Virus genome (UHGV): UHGV-0041589
Reading direction: 5' to 3' (one strand)
Source: a virus
Length of the DNA stretch: 20,735 nt
Each line of letters opens with the position of its first letter. Position 1 is the stretch's first letter. Both the position numbers and the translations under genes were made by a program. Below, one piece after another: positions 3,203 to 18,457 of the stretch. The notes beneath the pieces are model-generated. The model made no database searches. It was not told the origin of the DNA and saw only the letters and a list, made by a program, of their open reading frames with translations.

Positions 3203-3523
3203 ATGGCTACTTTGTTAACATCAGGGTTAACTGTTCCGGAGTATTACAAAAATGGTGGAGTGCTCGACTTTGAACTGGATGCTTTAGAGGTGGGCGGGAA
3301 TAGCACTGATTTTGAAAATTACCCTTCACTGGTAAACATTCTTTCTAAAGGTTTCGAGCTTCCTGCTACATCTATGGTTAGCGATCCAAAATTTTTAGCC
3401 CCAATACTAGTTTATGGGGACTTCTGGACAAAACTTCATGCTTATACTTATGCCATGGGCGGCTCCGTTGTATATAAGCAATTACCTTCTGGACGGTATC
3501 ATGCCAGATGTGAGTGGCATTAA
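3203..3523 (+). CDS. Hypothetical protein (106 aa), AT-rich moron antisense to the surrounding operon
   Basis: Strong RBS (AGGAGG) 7-8 nt upstream of ATG 3203. Visibly lower GC than its neighbours. Diverges from the helicase start (3168) and overlaps the C5-MTase stop by 3-4 nt. No recognisable motifs. Confidence 0.6.
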   Translation: MATLLTSGLTVPEYYKNGGVLDFELDALEVGGNSTDFENYPSLVNILSKGFELPATSMVSDPKFLAPILVYGDFWTKLHAYTYAMGGSVVYKQLPSGRYHARCEWH

Positions 3524-4548
3524 ATAAGGTCGTATCCTGCGCATTCCATAAACGAGCGGATGAATGTTGCGGCAGCTGGTGCGACTATCGCGTTGCCGTA
3601 GGCGCGCAGTCGTCCCACTCTGGAGGTAATCCCATTAGCCAACGGGCATGTGCCGGATTCAACTGGCCGCCAGCGACCATCCCGGCAGAGGAGCCAGTCA
3701 GCACCATCCCAGCAGCCGTTAATCGTATTGGGCCGCAGATTCTCGCAGCGCCGCCGAGGGTCGTTCCCCGTTCGGTATGATTGGCCGCTGCGCCCTCGGC
3801 ACGAACTTGGTTGTTGTCGATCGTCGTCACTGTCGGCCATCCCGCTAATCTGGATAGTCCCGCTAAGGTTTCTAGACCGCGTTTTGTCTCCGGCTGTGGG
3901 TTTGTGTTGCAGGTTGGGGTGTACCACCCCGCTAGGTGAGCAAAATTCCGCAGGGAGCTGTGTAGCGTGTTGCCGGACGGTCGACGATCTCCAGACATCT
4001 TCCTCAATGCTATTGAGGCGCTTTCGCCACCGCTGTGATCGCTCGCCGCTGGCGTCGGCCACCCAATACGCTCTATCTCGGATATGCGGGGCACCGACGC
4101 CCGCAGCCGGAAACGGGACAAGCCCAAAGGCGTAGTCCACTGCTTCCACGTCAGTTTGTACAAGATCGAACCAGGCATTGACTCCCGCAACCTGTTCGCC
4201 AAATACCAGCTTAGGGCGTCGCTCGCTGATGAGGTGGAATAGTGCTGGCCATAGGTGCCGCTCGTCATCAAACCCAGCGCCTTTACCAGCCGAGCTGAAA
4301 GGCTGGCACGGGCAACTTCCTGTCCAGACCGGTTTGTTATCCGGCCATCCGGCCAGACGCAGAGCATAAGACCAGACGCCGATCCCGGCGAAGAAATGGC
4401 ACTGTGTGAATCCGCGCAAGTCGTCTGGTGCGACATCTTCGATACTCCTTTCATCAACTTCACCCGGGGCGATATGACCTGCAGCAATAAGGTTACGCAG
4501 CCATTGTGCTGCGTTAGGGTCTATTTCGTTGTAATAGGCTCCCCGCAC
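3520..4548 (-). CDS. DNA (cytosine-5)-methyltransferase
   Basis: Motif I FAGIG, catalytic motif [14 protein letters not shown]-like FGEQV, C-terminal AYGNAIV. Arg-rich central variable region consistent with a target-recognition domain. Confidence 0.85.
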
Positions 4549-4817
4549 AATATCCCCTCCAGATTTTTGCTATCTAATACCACCACGGTAAAGCCCAACG
4601 CGCGCAGCCGTTCGTGCTCGCGTAACTGGTCAGGCCGTGGTGGTTTGCTTGGCGCTTTGCATTCGACAAAGACGATGCGACCGCCGGGTAGCAGGACAAT
4701 GCGATCCGGTACCGAGCGGCGACCGGGTGACACGAACTTAAAGGCGACCCCGCCAGCCTTTTTCACTTCGGCGACGAGGTGCTTTTCGATAAGGCTTTCA
4801 CGTTCGTAGGCCATCAT
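4521..4817 (-). CDS. VRR-NUC domain nuclease
   Basis: Start chosen at the internal ATGATG (4817..4812) because ATG 4817..4815 overlaps the upstream MTase stop TGA 4816..4814; the longer ORF to 4940 would overlap the MTase out of frame. Pattern VAFKFVSPGRRSVPDRIVLLPGGRIVFVECKAP...LREHE matches VRR-NUC. Confidence 0.75.
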   Translation of the reverse strand: MMAYERESLIEKHLVAEVKKAGGVAFKFVSPGRRSVPDRIVLLPGGRIVFVECKAPSKPPRPDQLREHERLRALGFTVVVLDSKNLEGILCGEPITTK

Positions 4818-13378: not shown

Positions 13379-15571
13379 ATGTCCGATAGCAAACCATGGG
13401 GAGCTACGCCTGATGAGTGGTTTCATTTCGACCTGGTATTGGGGAGAACTGATCATCTTCTCCCAGTTGTATGTAACCCCAGTGCGACCATATCCCCTGA
13501 TAGTAAACTGAAAGCGTTGGGTAAGACGCCGAGTCGCTATAACCGGGACCGCCAGGTCACCGGTATTGCTCAATGGACCGGGCATGTTGTTACTGAGCAT
13601 GATTTTGCCCGCTGGTCGAATGAACCGGATTATGGCATCTGCGTGCGTACAGGCCATGGCTGGCTGGCGCTGGACTGTGATAGCGAAGATGAAGACATTC
13701 AGGCAGATATTCGCAAAACGCTTGTGCAACTTCTGGGTGAGTTGCCGCCGCGACGCTGGCGAGCAAACAGTAATAAGTGTCTGTATCTGCTGGCCGTTGA
13801 TGGTGATTTCCGTAAGCGTATCCATCGCCTGGCGGGGGATATGGGCATTATCGAGTTGCTGGCGAACGGGCAGCAGTTCGTTGCCTGCGGTACGCACAGC
13901 AGCGGCGCGCGTATTGAATGGGACGGCGGTTTGCCGGATGAACCTCCGGCTATTACTGGTGAGCAGCTTGAAACGCTGTGGCAGCGCCTGGCTGAACAAC
14001 TCCCTGTGTCGGTAACCACCGAAGCGGGCAACACGAAGATGCGCGACCGATCAGCATTCACGCCCGGCGCGACGGATGATACAGCTGAATATCTTGATGC
14101 CAATGGCTGGACGCTGCTGGATGGCGCAAATGGTGAACGATATATCCGCTGTCCGTTTGAAGACGGCCACAGTAGCGGGGGCGATCCAACAAGCACAGTT
14201 TATTTTCCTGCGGGAACCGCGGGCTTTGAGCAGGGGCATTTTAAATGCCTGCATGCCAGTTGTGCGCATCGTGATGACGGAGATTTCCTTAATGCCATCG
14301 GGATCCGCAACGACGATTTCGAAGATCTGACCAGCACCGAAGTGGCGGAACCTTTACCGCTGCCTGCTTTCGAGCGTGATAAATGGGGGCGTATCGAGGC
14401 AACAATCAGCAACGCAGCCAAAGCAGTAGTACGCCCTGATTTTGTGGACATCGATATTCGCTTTGACCAGTTCCGCGACGAAATCATGTTTGCCCCTGCA
14501 GGATCCGGACAATGGCGGGCATTCACCGATGCGGATTATGCGCGCCTGCGCATCACGATGGAAAAGCGGGGATTTAAACCTGTTGGTCGTGAACTTATTC
14601 GCGATGTGGTGTTACTTGCAGCCGATGAACAACCATTCGATTCAGCGATCACTTGGCTGAACGGACTGGAGTGGGATGGCGTGCCGCGCATCGAATGTTT
14701 CTACCATACGCACTTCGGTACCGCCGACACGCCTTATACCCGTGCGGTGTCTATGTACATGTGGACCGCGTTGGCGGGGCGAGTACTGGAGCCAGGCATC
14801 AAAGCGGATATGGTGCCGATCCTCGTTGGTCCGCAGGGCTGCGGTAAGTCTTCCGGAGTGGAGGCACTGAGCCCTGATCCTGCGTTTTTTACTGAAATCT
14901 CTTTTGCCGAAAAAGACGATGATCTCGCTCGAAAAATGCGTGGTCGGCTGGTGGCAGAGATTGGTGAACTGCGCGGACTTAATACCAAAGAGCTGGAGTC
15001 AATCAAAGCGTTTGTGACGCGTACTCACGAAAACTGGATCCCGAAATACCGGGAGTTCGCCACCCAGTTTCCTCGTCGCCTGGTGTTCGTTGGTACCACC
15101 AATGAGGACGAATTCCTTGCGGACAAGACTGGTAACCGTCGCTGGCTCCCCGTGGAAGTGTCGAAAGTCGACGTGAAAGCGATAAAAAGAGATCTCCTTT
15201 TACTTTGGGCTGAGGCTCGTGAGGTGTTTCAGCGTCTGGGGGGTATCCAGTTCCGTGAGGCTGAACAACTGGCAGCGAGTGTCCATGAACAGTACACCAT
15301 CAAGGATGCTTGGCTTGAAACGGTAGAGAAATGGCTCGACACGCCAGACCTGATGACTAATGAACTTCCGCGAAATTGCGAATTTTTACGCGCAAGTGAT
15401 GTTTTGCGTGATGCGATTGGGCTAAATCCTGACCGCATCGGAAAACGCGAAGAAATGCGAATTAGTAATGTTTTGCAAAATTGCGGGTATAAGCGTGCCC
15501 AAAGGCGAATTGGGGGGAAAATGACTCGAATTTTTGAGGCGGTGTCCCAACCTGTACCAACCTCAAAATAG
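13379..15571 (+). CDS. DNA primase: N-terminal prim-pol domain fused to a C-terminal VirE/D5-like P-loop NTPase
   Basis: 730 aa; N-terminal bifunctional primase/polymerase-like region; Walker A GPQGCGKSSG and downstream Walker B-like acidic motif typical of P4/VirE-type primase C-terminal domains. Confidence 0.85.
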   Translation: MSDSKPWGATPDEWFHFDLVLGRTDHLLPVVCNPSATISPDSKLKALGKTPSRYNRDRQVTGIAQWTGHVVTEHDFARWSNEPDYGICVRTGHGWLALDCDSEDEDIQADIRKTLVQLLGELPPRRWRANSNKCLYLLAVDGDFRKRIHRLAGDMGIIELLANGQQFVACGTHSSGARIEWDGGLPDEPPAITGEQLETLWQRLAEQLPVSVTTEAGNTKMRDRSAFTPGATDDTAEYLDANGWTLLDGANGERYIRCPFEDGHSSGGDPTSTVYFPAGTAGFEQGHFKCLHASCAHRDDGDFLNAIGIRNDDFEDLTSTEVAEPLPLPAFERDKWGRIEATISNAAKAVVRPDFVDIDIRFDQFRDEIMFAPAGSGQWRAFTDADYARLRITMEKRGFKPVGRELIRDVVLLAADEQPFDSAITWLNGLEWDGVPRIECFYHTHFGTADTPYTRAVSMYMWTALAGRVLEPGIKADMVPILVGPQGCGKSSGVEALSPDPAFFTEISFAEKDDDLARKMRGRLVAEIGELRGLNTKELESIKAFVTRTHENWIPKYREFATQFPRRLVFVGTTNEDEFLADKTGNRRWLPVEVSKVDVKAIKRDLLLLWAEAREVFQRLGGIQFREAEQLAASVHEQYTIKDAWLETVEKWLDTPDLMTNELPRNCEFLRASDVLRDAIGLNPDRIGKREEMRISNVLQNCGYKRAQRRIGGKMTRIFEAVSQPVPTSK

Positions 15572-15586
15572 AGGTTGGTACATTTT
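15553..15586 (+). terminator. Strong hairpin + T-tract overlapping the primase stop codon
   Basis: Perfect 12-bp inverted repeat TGTACCAACCTC (15553-15564) / GAGGTTGGTACA (15571-15582), loop AAAATA containing stop TAG 15569-15571, followed by TTTT (15583-15586). The arms also carry the iteron core, so it may double as a protein-binding site. Confidence 0.55.
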
Positions 15587-15607
15587 AACTAATTGAATTT
15601 AAAGGCC

Positions 15608-15800
15608 AGTACCAACTGTACCATCTGTACCAACCTAATTACTAAGAACCCCATATATATATATAAGTCGCTTGGGGAAAAGGTTTGAAAAGAGCTGGTA
15701 CAGGTGGGTACAGGTTGGTACAGGCCGAACAAGGAATTTTTTGCACATAACAGCGTGTAATAAGCGAATCGGAACTGCGTTATCCACACCCACGGATAAA
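15608..15800. repeat. Candidate origin of replication: tandem iterons flanking an (AT)n tract plus a perfect DnaA box
   Basis: Three direct repeats with 9-bp period containing GTACCA (starts 15609, 15618, 15627); ATATATATATATA at 15653-15665; three inverted-orientation repeats GGTACAGG with exact 10-bp period (starts 15697, 15707, 15717); TTATCCACA at 15780-15788 paired with inverted GGATAA at 15794-15799. ORF-track ORFs 15589..15867(-) and 15672..15860(+) crossing this region are judged spurious. Confidence 0.55.
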
Positions 15801-15852
15801 CAAACGTGGTTCTCAGAAAATTTTTTCGTAGCAAAACGTAGAGGTCAGAGCT

Positions 15853-16275
15853 ATGCGTAATATTCAACAGGTTTTAGAGCGCTGGGGTGGCTGGGCAGCG
15901 AGTGAAGGTGGTAGTGTCTACTTTCCTCCTGTTGCAGCCGGGTTTAAGAATCTGCTACCCGCGACGCAGTCTGGAAGGCTGAAATGCAGTGACAATGACG
16001 GTCTTATCATCAACTCCGCTATGAGCTGCCTGAAGAAAAAAGATCCGTATCTGTGCACGCTCCTTGAGTGGCATTACGTCCAGGCCATGCCCGTGCGGGC
16101 GATGGGTGAGAAGCTCGGCGTATCTCACACCCACGTTCTGAAGAGGCTTCAGGCGGCAGAGGGATTTATTGACGGTTGCTTAGCCATGCTGGATGTGGTG
16201 CTCGAAATGGATCAGTCGGTTCAGTCAAAGCCTCAGGCTATCAGGACTTTGCGTAGGAGCTGCTCGGCGGCATAA
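15853..16275 (+). CDS. Q: Late-gene antiterminator, Q-family (phage 82/21-type)
   Basis: 140 aa; N-terminus MRNIQQVLERWGGWAA and C-terminal HTH-like MGEKLGVSHTHVLKRLQAAEGFIDGCLAMLD match the Q-type antiterminator pattern as I recall it. Confidence 0.75.
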   Translation: MRNIQQVLERWGGWAASEGGSVYFPPVAAGFKNLLPATQSGRLKCSDNDGLIINSAMSCLKKKDPYLCTLLEWHYVQAMPVRAMGEKLGVSHTHVLKRLQAAEGFIDGCLAMLDVVLEMDQSVQSKPQAIRTLRRSCSAA

Positions 16276-16306
16276 TATCCAGCAATCAATCACGTAAGGG
16301 AACCAG

Positions 16307-16648
16307 ATGGCTCTGATCAGCGTTCGCAACAGATTTGAAAGCTTCATGGAACAGAGGTACCCAGACCTGTCGTTGCAGGTCAAAGGTAATATTAGCGCAT
16401 CAATGAAGGCTCAACTTGGCATCAGGATTGAACGAGAATTGTACAGTGAAGATGTTACTTACTGTGATTCAGCAGTTCAGTTGATGTGGACACTCTTTCA
16501 GGCAGGTGTTCTGGCCGAACGAAGAGCTACCAGCGTTACGCTTCCTGCGCTGAAGGCAAAGCCGGATAGCTTCTACGATGCGGGTTATAACGAAGGTATT
16601 CAGGACTGTCGTAAACATCTGACGGCATCAGGCATCAAGGTAAGATAA
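16307..16648 (+). CDS. Hypothetical protein (113 aa) immediately downstream of Q
   Basis: ATG with AAGGGA RBS, 31 nt after the Q stop; followed by a terminator. No motif recognised. Confidence 0.55.
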   Translation: MALISVRNRFESFMEQRYPDLSLQVKGNISASMKAQLGIRIERELYSEDVTYCDSAVQLMWTLFQAGVLAERRATSVTLPALKAKPDSFYDAGYNEGIQDCRKHLTASGIKVR

Positions 16649-16715
16649 AAAATAGTTGTGGAATTCCAAAAAGCCGATTAGCCTGATATCCGTTGAAAAC
16701 AGTTCATCACGAAGA

Positions 16716-16739
16716 GGCTTCCGCAAGGGGGCCTTTTTT
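16716..16739 (+). terminator. Rho-independent terminator (GNRA tetraloop hairpin + T6)
   Basis: GGCUUCC-GCAA-GGGGGCC (7-bp stem incl. two G-U pairs, GCAA loop) followed by TTTTTT at 16734-16739. A second GC-rich segment + T6 follows at about 16808-16817. Confidence 0.6.
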
Positions 16740-16894
16740 ATTGCCCCATTCTGGGGAAAAGTTAATAAAACAGGGCTTTCGCTGCGAAAAAACGCTATGC
16801 AGTTTTTGCCCTTTTTTATGCACCTTTTATTCACTCGAATTTCGTCATTCTGGACCACTTAAGTTGATTAAATAGGCCTTTCATCGCAAATCTA

Positions 16895-16925
16895 TTGCGA
16901 GCGGGGATCGTGTGGTTCCTATAAC
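16895..16925 (+). promoter_or_regulatory. Candidate late promoter (PR'-like)
   Basis: -35-like TTGCGA (16895-16900), about 19-nt spacer, -10-like TATAAC (16920-16925). Placed upstream of a strong terminator and the lysis genes, as in lambdoid late regions. Sequence evidence alone is weak. Confidence 0.25.
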
Positions 16926-16969
16926 ATACATTATGTTAAATAACCTCCTTTTTTAACAAATTTAACAAG

Positions 16970-16992
16970 GTTCGCTATGGCGAACTTTTTTT
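16970..16992 (+). terminator. Rho-independent terminator (tR'-like) upstream of the lysis cassette
   Basis: Perfect 6-bp stem GTTCGC/GCGAAC with TATG loop followed by T7 (16986-16992). Lies about 100 nt upstream of the holin start. Confidence 0.65.
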
Positions 16993-17093
16993 GTATTCAG
17001 GGCCCACCGAAGGACGGCTCATAACCCAATCCTACGGGCGTATACGCAGGGCCCGCCTTTCAACAACACCCCGTAATGGCGGAGGTGGGAAGT

Positions 17094-17469
17094 ATGAAAA
17101 TGCACAATGCTCCTCATTCCTGGCCTGACTTACTGGAACTCTTACAAAGTTGGTGGCGTGGAGATACGCCGTTGGGCGCAGTGGTTATGTCAATTGTTAT
17201 GGCTGGTTTGCGCATTGCCTATTTTGGCGGTGGCGGCGGCTGGAAACGAAAAACGCTTGAGATTTTGCTCTGTGGTGCTCTGACGCTGACCTTTGCATCC
17301 GCTCTTGAGTATGTTGGATGGCCTAAATCGCTTTCTGTTGCCATTGGTGGTGGTGTTGGGCTGATCGGTGTCGATGCTATTCGTGGGGCTGNNNNNNNNN
17401 NNNNNNNNNNNNNTTCGTGGGGCTGCAATGCGAGTAATCGGTAACAAGTTTGGTGGCTCTAAGGAGTAA
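17094..17469 (+). CDS. S: Class I holin, lambda S-like, with dual-start motif (Met-Lys-Met); frame interrupted by N-run 17392-17413
   Basis: GGAGG (17081-17085) 8 nt upstream of ATG-AAA-ATG (17094-17102). Segments LRIAYFGGGGGWKRKTLEI and IGLIGVDAIRGA parallel lambda S. The 3' end (…AAMRVIGNKFGGSKE, stop TAA 17467-17469) assumes the duplicated 12-mer TTCGTGGGGCTG either side of the gap is an overlap; the ORF track instead gives a stop at 17444 in the as-written frame. Confidence 0.65.
17392..17413. other. Assembly gap: 22 N flanked by an identical 12-mer (17380-17391 and 17414-17425)
   Basis: The duplicated TTCGTGGGGCTG on both sides suggests two contig ends that actually overlap; collapsing them restores one continuous holin frame. 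Confidence 0.8.
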
Positions 17470-17472
17470 TTC

Positions 17473-17949
17473 ATGCAGACACTAAATTCCCAACGTAAAG
17501 CTTTCCTGGATATGGTGGCATGGTCAGAAGGAACGGATAACGGGCGACAACCGACACGTAATCACGGTTATGACGTTATTGTCGGAGGTGAGTTGTTCAC
17601 TGATTACTCCGATCACCCTCGCAAACTTGTCACGCTAAACCCGAAGCTTAAATCAACAGCCGCAGGCCGGTATCAGCTTCTTTCACGCTGGTGGGATGCC
17701 TACCGTAAGCAGCTTGGCCTGAAAGATTTTTCGCCAGAAAGTCAGGACGCTGTGGCGCTGCAGCAGATTAAAGAGCGTGGCGCTTTACCGATGATTGACC
17801 GTGGCGATATTCGTCAGGCAATCGACCGTTGCAGCAATATCTGGGCGTCGTTACCTGGTGCAGGTTACGGTCAGTATGAACATAAAATCGGTGACCTGAT
17901 TTCCAGGTTTAAAGATGCTGGTGGGGTGGTAAATGAAGCTGACTTATAA
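17473..17949 (+). CDS. R: Endolysin, lambda R-type lytic transglycosylase
   Basis: 158 aa; QRKAFLDM.AWSEGTDNGRQ.TRNHGYDVIVGGELFTDYSDHPRKLVTLNPKLKST.AGRYQLLSRWWDAYRKQLGLKDF is near-identical to phage lambda R as I recall it. AAGGAG RBS 6 nt upstream. Confidence 0.95.
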   Translation: MQTLNSQRKAFLDMVAWSEGTDNGRQPTRNHGYDVIVGGELFTDYSDHPRKLVTLNPKLKSTAAGRYQLLSRWWDAYRKQLGLKDFSPESQDAVALQQIKERGALPMIDRGDIRQAIDRCSNIWASLPGAGYGQYEHKIGDLISRFKDAGGVVNEADL

Positions 17950-18457
17950 GATTGTCATCGCGGCATTTTTCTTCTCTGCCTTTGGGGCGCTCGTCTGGTC
18001 TGCAAACCATTACCACAGCAAGTATCAGGCAGAAAAGTTGCGGGCTGATAAAGCGGAAGGTGAAGCTGAATATCAAGGGAAAGTGATAGCTAATCAGGCA
18101 TTAAACTTCAATCGTTTTAACCAGATAGCAGAAAACGCAAGCCGATTAAATTCTCTGGTCGACATCGGTCACGAGAAGACAGTCATCAAATACCGTGAGG
18201 TTCTGCTCCGTGAAAAGAACTGTGATTTCCCTGTTCCTGTTGATATTGCTGTCGGGTTGCTCAACTACGCGAACCGTTTACGCGCCAGCGCATTGCACGC
18301 CGATTCCGGGGACATTGACTCAGCCGGTGATCGTGCCACTACCCCCAGAACGTTGACATATTGCCAGGCTGTTCTGTGGATTAACCCACTGTTGGCAGCC
18401 ATCGAGAAGGCGAATAACCAGTTGGCTGGTGTCCGACAAATAGAACAGTCCCGGTAA
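17933..18457 (+). CDS. Rz: Rz-like inner-membrane spanin (i-spanin)
   Basis: 174 aa; N-terminal TM IVIAAFFFSAFGALVW followed by a charged helical periplasmic region; start overlaps the endolysin 3' end; position after the endolysin. Confidence 0.8.
   Translation: MKLTYKIVIAAFFFSAFGALVWSANHYHSKYQAEKLRADKAEGEAEYQGKVIANQALNFNRFNQIAENASRLNSLVDIGHEKTVIKYREVLLREKNCDFPVPVDIAVGLLNYANRLRASALHADSGDIDSAGDRATTPRTLTYCQAVLWINPLLAAIEKANNQLAGVRQIEQSR
18210..18356 (+). CDS. Rz1: Rz1-like outer-membrane lipoprotein spanin (o-spanin), embedded in the +1 frame of Rz; absent from the ORF track
   Basis: GTG start with GAGG 9 nt upstream. Translation MKRTVISLFLLILLSGCSTTRTVYAPAHCTPIPGTLTQPVIVPLPPER (48 aa): lipoprotein signal peptide with lipobox LLSG|C, Pro-rich mature part, stop TGA 18354-18356, entirely inside Rz. 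Confidence 0.75.
   Translation: MKRTVISLFLLILLSGCSTTRTVYAPAHCTPIPGTLTQPVIVPLPPER

Follow-up and report, generated by a model that had tools for sequence, protein, structure and literature searches.

The nin genes of lambdoid phages (ninA–ninI in lambda and ninA–ninZ in P22) are small, mostly dispensable, delayed-early genes located between the replication genes and Q. A second setting for accessory genes, the late cargo slot, comes after both the late promoter PR′ and the terminator tR′, and is exemplified by stx and the tRNA genes of Stx phages and by the lc porin of PA-2. The late promoter of lambda is known experimentally. In phage 21 the Q-binding element is located between −35 and −10, with a sigma-dependent pause and then a terminator after it (PMC6606751). 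The Q antiterminators fall into families that have no sequence or structural similarity to one another, and family PF06530 has been equated with the phage 21 Q family (PMC9388147).

The DNA analysed here is a stretch of 20,735 nt (UHGV virus genome UHGV-0041589, hereafter the window) that comprises an Escherichia coli prophage. Between its genes for Q and the holin is an open reading frame of 113 codons, ORF113. It resembles the nin genes in being small and, by assumption, dispensable, and in its place in the rightward early operon, after a replication gene and upstream of the putative PR′; unlike them it sits after Q, inside a Q–PR′ unit that is otherwise tight. With late cargo it shares its location in the Q-to-holin interval, its accessory character and a patchy distribution, and homologues elsewhere fill the late slot, but ORF113 itself is upstream of the putative PR′ and hence would not be under the control of Q. 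Like orf-64 of lambda it is a small reading frame of unknown role right beside the late promoter and leader, although the two have no sequence relation, orf-64 is downstream of PR′, and ORF113 is clearly under purifying selection. The evidence set out below indicates that ORF113 is probably a dispensable accessory gene of the nin type, belonging to the phiTE_015 family, that lies between Q and PR′ and is transcribed with Q.

Layout of the locus

The region is 100% identical to that in strains BH100, F11 and others, and in BH100N the prophage is integrated beside yfhL and shoB. In contrast to classical lambdoid phages, the prophage carries a VapE primase, a family A DNA polymerase and a myovirus-type tail; it further encodes a LexA-like repressor, a cro-like HTH protein, Q, a lysis cassette and terminase. 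The nin region is almost absent from it. Starting at the gene for the cro-like HTH protein and reading along the plus strand throughout, the order continues with the VapE primase gene, passes through origin-like repeats located between the primase gene and Q, and then continues as Q, ORF113 and the PR′ module. The features of the locus are as follows.

15853 to 16275, plus strand: Q antiterminator, 140 aa (Pfam PF06530, E = 5e-42; PHROG 79)
16296 to 16301, plus strand: ribosome-binding site AAGGGA, 5 nt before the ORF113 ATG (read from the sequence)
16307 to 16648, plus strand: ORF113, ATG start, 113 aa, assigned to PF26207 (Phage_phiTE_015) / PHROG 343 (open reading frame list, family matches and dN/dS)
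16311 to 16596, plus strand: 286-bp segment missing in a natural deletion allele (alignment with phage vB_EcoM-611R5)
16656 to 16684, plus strand: putative PR′, with −35 TTGTGG (16656–16661), spacer AATTCCAAAA... (presumptive Q-binding element) and −10 TAGCCT (16679–16684) (comparative)
16716 to 16739, plus strand: intrinsic terminator, putative tR′, with stem GGCTTCC/GGGGGCC and GCAA loop (16716–16733) followed by TTTTTT (16734–16739) (hairpin folding)
16773 to 16817, plus strand: second terminator-like hairpin with T run
16967 to 16994, plus strand: third terminator-like hairpin with T run, 80 nt before the holin gene
17076 to 17444, plus strand: lambda-family holin, first gene of the lysis cassette (PF05106, E = 1.4e-23)
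17473 to 17949, plus strand: endolysin
17933 to 18457, plus strand: Rz (the cassette matches PHROG 126, 90 and 214)

The Q protein of the window is 42–46% identical to the Q proteins of Stx phages such as 933W. Its gene ends with the stop codon TAA at 16273–16275; position 16276, from which a first-pass annotation of this DNA had counted the feature, is the first base past the stop, and the gap between the stop and the ATG of ORF113 is 31 nt. That annotation had described a 113-aa reading frame 31 nt after Q, followed by a strong terminator and possibly co-transcribed with Q. The reading frame, its spacing and the terminator are all found as described, the last with an energy of −13.3 kcal/mol for the 45 nt upstream of its T run. 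No terminator is found between Q and ORF113, and this, together with the short spacing, supports co-transcription of the two.

A scan of 15400–17300 against Rfam gave only sub-threshold terminator-like matches, a match to a ctRNA terminator being the sole RNA-family signal. Reading frames of 52, 49 and 30 aa on the minus strand within 16225–16628 were rejected; they have no support, and they overlap a gene under purifying selection.

ORF113 is a genuine gene of a catalogued family

ORF113 is a genuine gene under purifying selection, as judged by dN/dS ratios of 0.07–0.23 across six homologue pairs and by the columns conserved in an alignment of 45 sequences. In that alignment F10, E11 and P80 are invariant, and Y52, W61, L79, G93 and N95 are shared by 90% of the sequences or more; F10, E11, W61, L79, P80 and G93–N95 stand out as conserved columns, and ORF113 is a single small domain with the F-E / W / L-P / G-x-N pattern of PF26207/PHROG 343. 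The ribosome-binding site and the N-terminus are also conserved among homologues. The homologues are 26–98% identical to ORF113 and come from prophages of Escherichia, Rahnella, Yersinia, Providencia, Proteus and Xenorhabdus, together with a phage deposited as a Vibrio phage. Within E. coli the gene is present in 62 of 5426 complete genomes at 95–100% DNA identity, and 63 of 66 matching E. coli records are at least 99% identical to it at the DNA level.

The first-pass annotation had seen no recognisable motif in the protein, a statement that is superseded by matches to catalogued families. Residues 5–112 match PHROG 343 (function unknown) with E = 2.8e-18, cluster representatives 98% identical to ORF113 carry a precomputed tag for PF26207, named Phage_phiTE_015, and newer RefSeq annotations use the name 'phiTE_015 family protein'. 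The search for remote homology that had been proposed as a check on the first reading was productive. Using hhalign, the 45-sequence alignment matches phiTE_015 with a probability of 97.5% (E = 6.4e-12) and gp32 of Salmonella phage ST64T with a probability of 98.5% (E = 3.4e-15). On the strength of these profile matches ORF113 is assigned to PF26207 (Phage_phiTE_015) / PHROG 343, a catalogued family without known function. A local copy of Pfam-A that has no PF26207 model, NCBIfam and PADLOC gave nothing meaningful for ORF113 or for the distant members, and the literature on phiTE_015, PF26207, PHROG 343 and D3 orf41 describes no function for any member of the family.

The close subfamily is small. 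An exhaustive HMMER search matched 16 clusters among 1.84 billion representatives; none of the 16 is annotated, and two are low-complexity false positives. The wider family occurs in 178 deposited phage genomes, mostly those of Salmonella and Pseudomonas phages. Profile scans of genome contigs with two family alignments gave no confirmed locus.

Members of the phiTE_015 family (gene 015 of phiTE, from which the name is taken, orf41 of Pseudomonas phage D3 and gp32 of ST64T) are about 86–115 aa in length, like ORF113. The columns common to ORF113 and PF26207/PHROG 343 comprise an N-terminal helix with R..FE, a central helix with Q..W, a V.LP strand, and a C-terminal helix and strand with GYNE.I..C...I..AG.KV. 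The ORF113 subfamily differs from the rest of the family in that it is found mainly in prophages of Enterobacterales, has a longer variable insert (residues 24–50, with low pLDDT), and has a strict PDxFYDAGYNEGI motif.

Among the distant members, gp32 of ST64T, a P22-like lambdoid phage, is encoded in the nin region, with replication gene 12 on one side and ninB on the other. Gene 015 of phiTE overlaps a gene for a Lar-like restriction-alleviation protein and is near a NinX-like gene, between the primase/helicase and polymerase genes. Still other distant members come after a Prim-Pol or VapE primase, amid successive small reading frames. By analogy this setting is the signature of small, dispensable early or delayed-early accessory genes, of which ORF113 would be the only one in the prophage.

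A 'head closure' label attached to PHROG 15831 was considered and rejected. The match covers the C-terminal half only (residues 60–112 against profile positions 9–60 of 112), and a role in head closure is also disfavoured for a gene that lies in a regulatory region, has a nin or early family setting and is deleted in deposited phage genomes.

The encoded protein

The ORF113 protein has a mass of 12.8 kDa and a pI of 8.6. The first-pass annotation had suggested looking for a signal peptide or transmembrane segment; the sequence has neither, and its maximum Kyte–Doolittle mean over 19 residues is 0.94. The product is predicted to be a soluble, cytoplasmic, small α/β protein. Across the family the pI ranges from 4.1 to 8.7; charge is thus not conserved, and therefore a DNA-binding role is not suggested.

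An AlphaFold2 model made with the 45 sequences is of moderate confidence (pLDDT = 75.3, pTM = 0.61; an earlier model had a pLDDT of 72.5). The modelled fold comprises three long core helices and two short strands, with a short helix in a low-confidence insert. Starting at the N-terminus the chain forms a helix (residues 6–17), and then passes through the insert (24–50), which includes the short helix (29–36). It continues as the second long helix (55–74) and then as the short V-x-L-P strand. Following a loop that contains PDSFYDAGYNEG, the chain forms the helix 94–107 and ends in the terminal strand.

Comparison of this fold with known structures did not point to a function. Foldseek searches with the two AlphaFold2 models, made twice against the PDB and once against BFVD, gave no match at E ≤ 0.001; the best match, which falls outside this threshold, is to an uncharacterised Salmonella phage protein. 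Among PDB sequences, a profile search found nothing better than matches with E > 1 to designed TPR proteins. Most of the conserved residues are aromatic or structural, and they include no catalytic constellation. We infer that ORF113 is neither an enzyme nor a protein of the membrane or the virion. A more tentative suggestion, which falls short of being probable, is that it acts by binding a partner protein in lytic growth, in an accessory role in host takeover, DNA transactions or anti-defence.

A putative late promoter linked to Q lies downstream of ORF113

The 16-mer TTGTGGAATTCCAAAA starts at 16656, 8 nt past the stop codon of ORF113. The identical 16-mer is located directly after the stop codons of the homologues in four relatives (L021, L024, L025 and L029) that have the same gene order as the window, while the window contains no second copy, even at three mismatches. 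IMG/VR was scanned for exact matches to TTGTGGAATTCCAAAA, and the flanks of the resulting 120 hits were searched with the Q, ORF113 and holin sequences of the window. A homologue of the window Q (60–100% identity) adjoins the element in 40 of the 120. ORF113 is absent from 21 of these 40 Q-linked loci, and in these the element starts at −3 to +48 nt relative to the end of the aligned Q; in the other 19 a homologue of ORF113 intervenes, and the element is found 11–12 nt past the last aligned codon of that reading frame. Because the element stays next to Q whether the reading frame is absent or interposed, it belongs to Q and not to ORF113.

The aligned flanks have a common architecture. TTGTGG is followed by an invariant spacer and, exactly 17 nt later, by a TAnnnT hexamer that takes the forms TAGCCT, TAGTCT, TAATCT, TAACCT, TACTCT and TAATGT. 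After this there is a short leader, and then a GC-rich hairpin with a T run. The terminator lies 30–90 nt downstream overall, except in a few aligned loci that have no clear terminator in the stretch of flank compared; the distance from the −10 hexamer to the hairpin is about 30 nt in the window and 45–60 nt in most relatives. The −35/17-nt/−10 geometry, the invariant spacer and the terminator downstream match a lambdoid late promoter, and it is on this comparative anatomy that 16656–16684 is identified as the likely PR′ with its Q-binding site. The terminator at 16716–16739 is best read as tR′ of the leader of this promoter. Pause hexamers resembling a −10 element (TACTTT, TATTGT), located a few nt past the start region, are plausible in most relatives, and no pause element is recognisable in the leader of the window itself (GATATCCGTTGAAAAC).

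Other identities for TTGTGGAATTCCAAAA, judged by eye, were a CRP/FNR-type site and a repressor operator. Only one half-site is CRP-like, and a promoter is a better fit than either, given the fixed geometry, the TAnnnT hexamer and the terminator downstream.

The PR′ module starts past the stop codon of ORF113, and therefore ORF113 is expected to be expressed from an earlier transcript together with Q. It is thus probably carried on the delayed-early Q transcript.

Homologues are found on either side of the putative late promoter

About 20 genomic contexts of family members were inspected. Members of the ORF113 subfamily are near Q in all contexts examined, unlike other members of the phiTE_015 family, with one displaced by 1.5 kb; in this exception (L033) an ORF6N gene and a HicAB pair separate a PF06323-type Q from the homologue. 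In the Providencia, Yersinia ruckeri and Xenorhabdus contexts Q is followed by the homologue. The relatives that share the gene order of the window have the reading frame first and then the promoter element, and others have them in the reverse order. A lambda-type Q (PF03589) precedes the homologue in L027, L028, L030 and L001, and the interval separating the two aligns with lambda PR′ as TTG..TTG..A.TTGG..TAA.T...A..TGG. A terminator then precedes the homologue in L028, L030 and L001, while in L027 PR′ is followed by the homologue and then by the first terminator. Following the homologue in L030 are three tRNA genes. L034 has a DUF1133-type Q, with a 10/12 promoter and a terminator ahead of the homologue. 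L032 has a divergent PF06530-type Q, and a variant of the module (TTGCGTAATTACAAAAG...TAAGAGTG...terminator) comes between this Q and the homologue downstream.

From this arrangement the homologues in L028, L030, L001, L034 and L032 would each be the first gene of the late transcript, past tR′. Early timing is consequently not a property of the family as judged from gene order, with homologues located downstream of PR′ in relatives. L028 further contains, after the homologue, a fossil of a PF06530-type leader and terminator that is missing its −35 and spacer part. Because this remnant persists 3′ to the reading frame, L028 evidently kept the frame while the Q module upstream of it was replaced.

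These relatives give substance to an alternative in which ORF113 itself is cargo of the late operon, transcribed from PR′ under Q at a high level late in infection, like stx and the tRNAs of Stx phages. ORF113 does lie between Q and the holin gene, a promoter and terminator precede the homologue next to three different types of Q (lambda-type in L028, L030 and L001, DUF1133-type in L034, divergent PF06530 in L032), and the lambda-type promoters of the relatives align with one whose function has been established by experiment. For the window, however, this alternative is unlikely. The sole copy of the Q-linked promoter module is downstream of ORF113, the 31-nt gap between Q and ORF113 could not accommodate a promoter together with a pause site and a terminator, and the only promoter-like match near the gap scores 8/12 and is inside the Q coding sequence. 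The first-pass annotation had assigned ORF113 to a cargo slot between Q and lysis. It was right in that the gene lies between Q and the holin gene and has no known function, but with the putative PR′ module 8 nt after it the gene would not be in the late slot; for several of the relatives the late-slot picture is correct.

Less likely again is that ORF113 is a moron, expressed in the lysogen from a promoter of its own within the 3′ end of Q (16249–16276), ended by its own terminator, and of benefit to the host, for example by superinfection exclusion. The promoter would be the weak site just mentioned, TTGCGT-16-CATAAT, which overlaps the Q stop codon. A promoter-like site is kept here in close relatives (TTTGCA-17-CATAAT, 9/12, in L021 and TTGCGA-16-CATAAT in phage 611R5), the GC content of ORF113 is somewhat lower than that of Q (0.47 against 0.54, with a mean of 0.51 for the window), a terminator follows the gene, if one shared with the PR′ leader, and the homologue in L027, located past PR′ but ahead of the first terminator, could be expressed independently of Q. 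Yet the site is below the threshold of the scan, it lies within coding sequence that would be conserved in any case, and L024, L025 and L029, loci of the same gene order, lack it. The gap to Q is 15–31 nt in all loci of this order, as is typical of an operon, and PADLOC has no match to the protein. Transcription of ORF113 together with Q remains the preferred reading.

A natural deletion allele

In phage vB_EcoM-611R5 and its relatives the 286 bp at 16311–16596 are missing. The junction joins ATGG directly to TATTCAGG and leaves a frameshifted stub of nine codons. This allele is found in four deposited phage genomes (vB_EcoM-611R5 and relatives) and in 31 complete E. coli genomes; in the phages carrying it Q is 89% identical and the downstream region 98% identical to the window. 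A further 21 loci with the Q subfamily of the window have no ORF113 at all. ORF113 is an accessory gene, and its deletion or absence in otherwise near-identical relatives fits accessory cargo. Because the 286-bp deletion occurs in four phage and 31 E. coli genomes, ORF113 is probably dispensable for the phage, where the viability of the phages with the deletion allele is assumed from their deposit as phage genomes. A search of the literature on these vB_EcoM phages found no paper. A small reading frame upstream of Q in 611R5 was considered as a displaced copy of ORF113 and rejected (E = 4.4).

Discussion

The constant association of the subfamily with Q raises the question of whether the protein takes part in the late switch. 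All of the divergent homologues examined in the FYDAGYNEGI subfamily lie just downstream of Q and upstream of the lysis genes. This placement spans phages of Escherichia, Rahnella, Yersinia, Providencia, Xenorhabdus and Proteus/Vibrio and four families of Q (PF06530, PF03589, DUF1133 and PF06323, the last at a distance of 1.5 kb), and L028 kept the gene while its Q module was exchanged. The protein might then influence RNA polymerase, antitermination by Q or the moment of lysis. Since the Q families are unrelated (PMC9388147) a contact with Q common to all of them is unlikely. The protein might act on a component shared by the late switches (NusA, RNA polymerase or the termination that takes place at the tR′ cluster), or set the interval from Q synthesis to lysis; the constancy of position could then reflect function, and not only descent. 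If true, ORF113 would be a previously unnoticed accessory factor of Q-type antitermination. We regard this as improbable, more so than either of the alternatives considered above. Distant members of the family are 3 kb from Q (ST64T) or in a region of a virulent phage without an annotated Q (phiTE), deletion alleles are common, and the homologue may be on either side of PR′, so that timing relative to Q is not conserved.

That ORF113 is a chance reading frame in a regulatory spacer, a view that only its smallness and the absence of any known function would favour, is refuted by the dN/dS ratios, by the columns shared with homologues down to 26% identity, and by the conserved ribosome-binding site and N-terminus.

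We return to ORF113 as a probably dispensable accessory gene of the nin type, and the way in which it would be expressed can be outlined as follows. From the primase gene the locus runs through origin-like repeats, Q and ORF113 to the putative PR′ with its Q-binding site, and from there through tR′ and a further two terminators to the holin gene. ORF113 would share the delayed-early rightward transcript with Q, and would be translated from a ribosome-binding site of its own. This transcript, which would not be Q-modified, would end at the terminator just downstream of ORF113, and the same terminator would double as tR′ for the short leader RNA initiated at PR′. The product may then bind a partner protein during lytic growth.

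Parts of this were known already. The family has been catalogued, with its function unknown, and small accessory genes of the nin kind are familiar; the value of the finding is modest, no long-standing question is opened by it, and no new mechanism is in view. What is new is the placing of the putative PR′ downstream of ORF113, the change of position relative to PR′ among the relatives, and the natural deletion allele.

The map of the late switch of this prophage is corrected by these assignments, with PR′ probably at 16656–16684 and the gene on the Q transcript and not in the late operon, which changes the timing and strength expected for the expression of ORF113. The 286-bp deletion in otherwise near-identical prophages provides a ready-made comparison of phenotype, and ORF113 is a reasonable candidate for inclusion in screens for host-takeover or anti-defence activity. 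More generally, one small gene family stays at the junction of Q and the late promoter across many prophages of Enterobacterales despite exchange of the Q module and, being found on either side of PR′, may serve as a convenient marker of recombination of the late-regulatory module.

Deletion of ORF113 and its packing against Q

A natural deletion allele of ORF113, the 113-aa gene lying between the antiterminator gene Q and the inferred late promoter PR′, removes 286 bp (window positions 16311–16596; compare locus L003 at 3501–3520). The deletion is frameshifting, and there is a GG microhomology at its junction. It is carried by four vB_EcoM phage records and by 31 complete genomes of E. coli. 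The first part of the database protein P0019 (143 aa) is the C-terminus of a Q of the PF06530 type (…KRLQSAEGLIGGCLATL…), after which ORF113-like sequence follows. This is probably a mis-called or frameshifted junction of Q and the ORF, and is one more sign of the tight packing of the two genes.

Sequence elements flanking Q and ORF113

The segment 15543–15726, in the interval from the VapE primase gene to Q, contains at least eight copies of a 10–12-bp repeat (GGTTGGTACA / TGTACCAACC). The copies are arranged as two inverted arrays, with a spacing that is partly 10 bp, and these flank an (AT)n tract at approximately 15655–15668. The arrangement resembles a replication origin equipped with iterons and an unwinding element. 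Where the primase gene ends, two of the repeat copies in inverted orientation (15553–15582) also make up a hairpin resembling a terminator.

Downstream of ORF113, the leader contains a perfect palindrome, AACATA-CAT-TATGTT (16923–16937), located between the second and third of the terminators that precede the holin gene. It overlaps a promoter-like site on the minus strand (TTGTTA-18-CATAAT, 16930–16959), the sole such site returned by the promoter scan. The palindrome is retained in phage vB_EcoM-611R5, which has the deletion allele of ORF113, except for one base immediately 5′ to it.

The holin and Rz genes

The holin gene of the window is interrupted by a run of 22 N (17392–17413) with an identical 12 nt (TTCGTGGGGCTG) on either side. 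The holin gene of E. coli strain BH100N, in which this prophage is integrated, is gap-free with one copy of TTCGTGGGGCTG. The run looks like an assembly gap or an artefact of joining; because of it the holin ORF of the window is nine codons overlong (122 aa vs 113 aa). Further 3′, a different-frame ORF (18195–18356) is nested within the Rz gene (17933–18457). Its N-terminus, MRFCSVKRTVISLFLLILLSGCSTT, is a lipoprotein signal with a lipobox, and the ORF is, judged from its sequence, the expected Rz1 o-spanin. The RefSeq annotation of this region has just one 'hypothetical protein'.

Accessory genes and Q exchange in relatives

DNA methyltransferase-like genes recur slightly 3′ of the ORF113 homologue and 5′ of the lysis genes in several relatives.

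DNA methyltransferase-like genes close to ORF113 homologues (motifs judged by eye)
L024, 4798–5883
L025 and L026, 5742–6800
L035, 4797–5846
L028, 5775–6935

These candidates are of the DPPY-motif type, with one Dcm-like, as judged by eye from their sequence motifs. In phiTE the neighbour of the ORF113 family member is a Lar-like restriction-alleviation gene. The methyltransferase and Lar-like neighbours could reflect a coincidence of accessory regions.

Locus L033 is the only one in which the homologue adjoins neither Q nor PR′. Here (3365–3972) a HicA/HicB-like toxin–antitoxin pair (a candidate assignment, from reading of the sequences) and an ORF6N antirepressor-like gene separate it from a PF06323-type Q. 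In a Yersinia ruckeri prophage (L173) the homologue is followed, within the Q-to-lysis interval, by an alpha/beta-hydrolase or lipase gene (PF00561; 3173–4051), possibly a virulence-type cargo gene. In L030 three tRNA genes (Gln-TTG, Met-CAT and Gly-TCC; 4423–4724) lie between the homologue, directly 5′, and the holin gene 3′, matching the late-slot arrangement of Stx phages.

In L028 the homologue is followed by the remnant of a PF06530-type PR′ leader and terminator (4340–4415; TAAGAGT...CACACAGCTTATTGAATTA...CCTCG..CGGGGTTTTTTT), lacking the −35 and Q-binding part. The Q of this phage is lambda-type, and the remnant is, on sequence grounds, a trace of replacement of the Q module.
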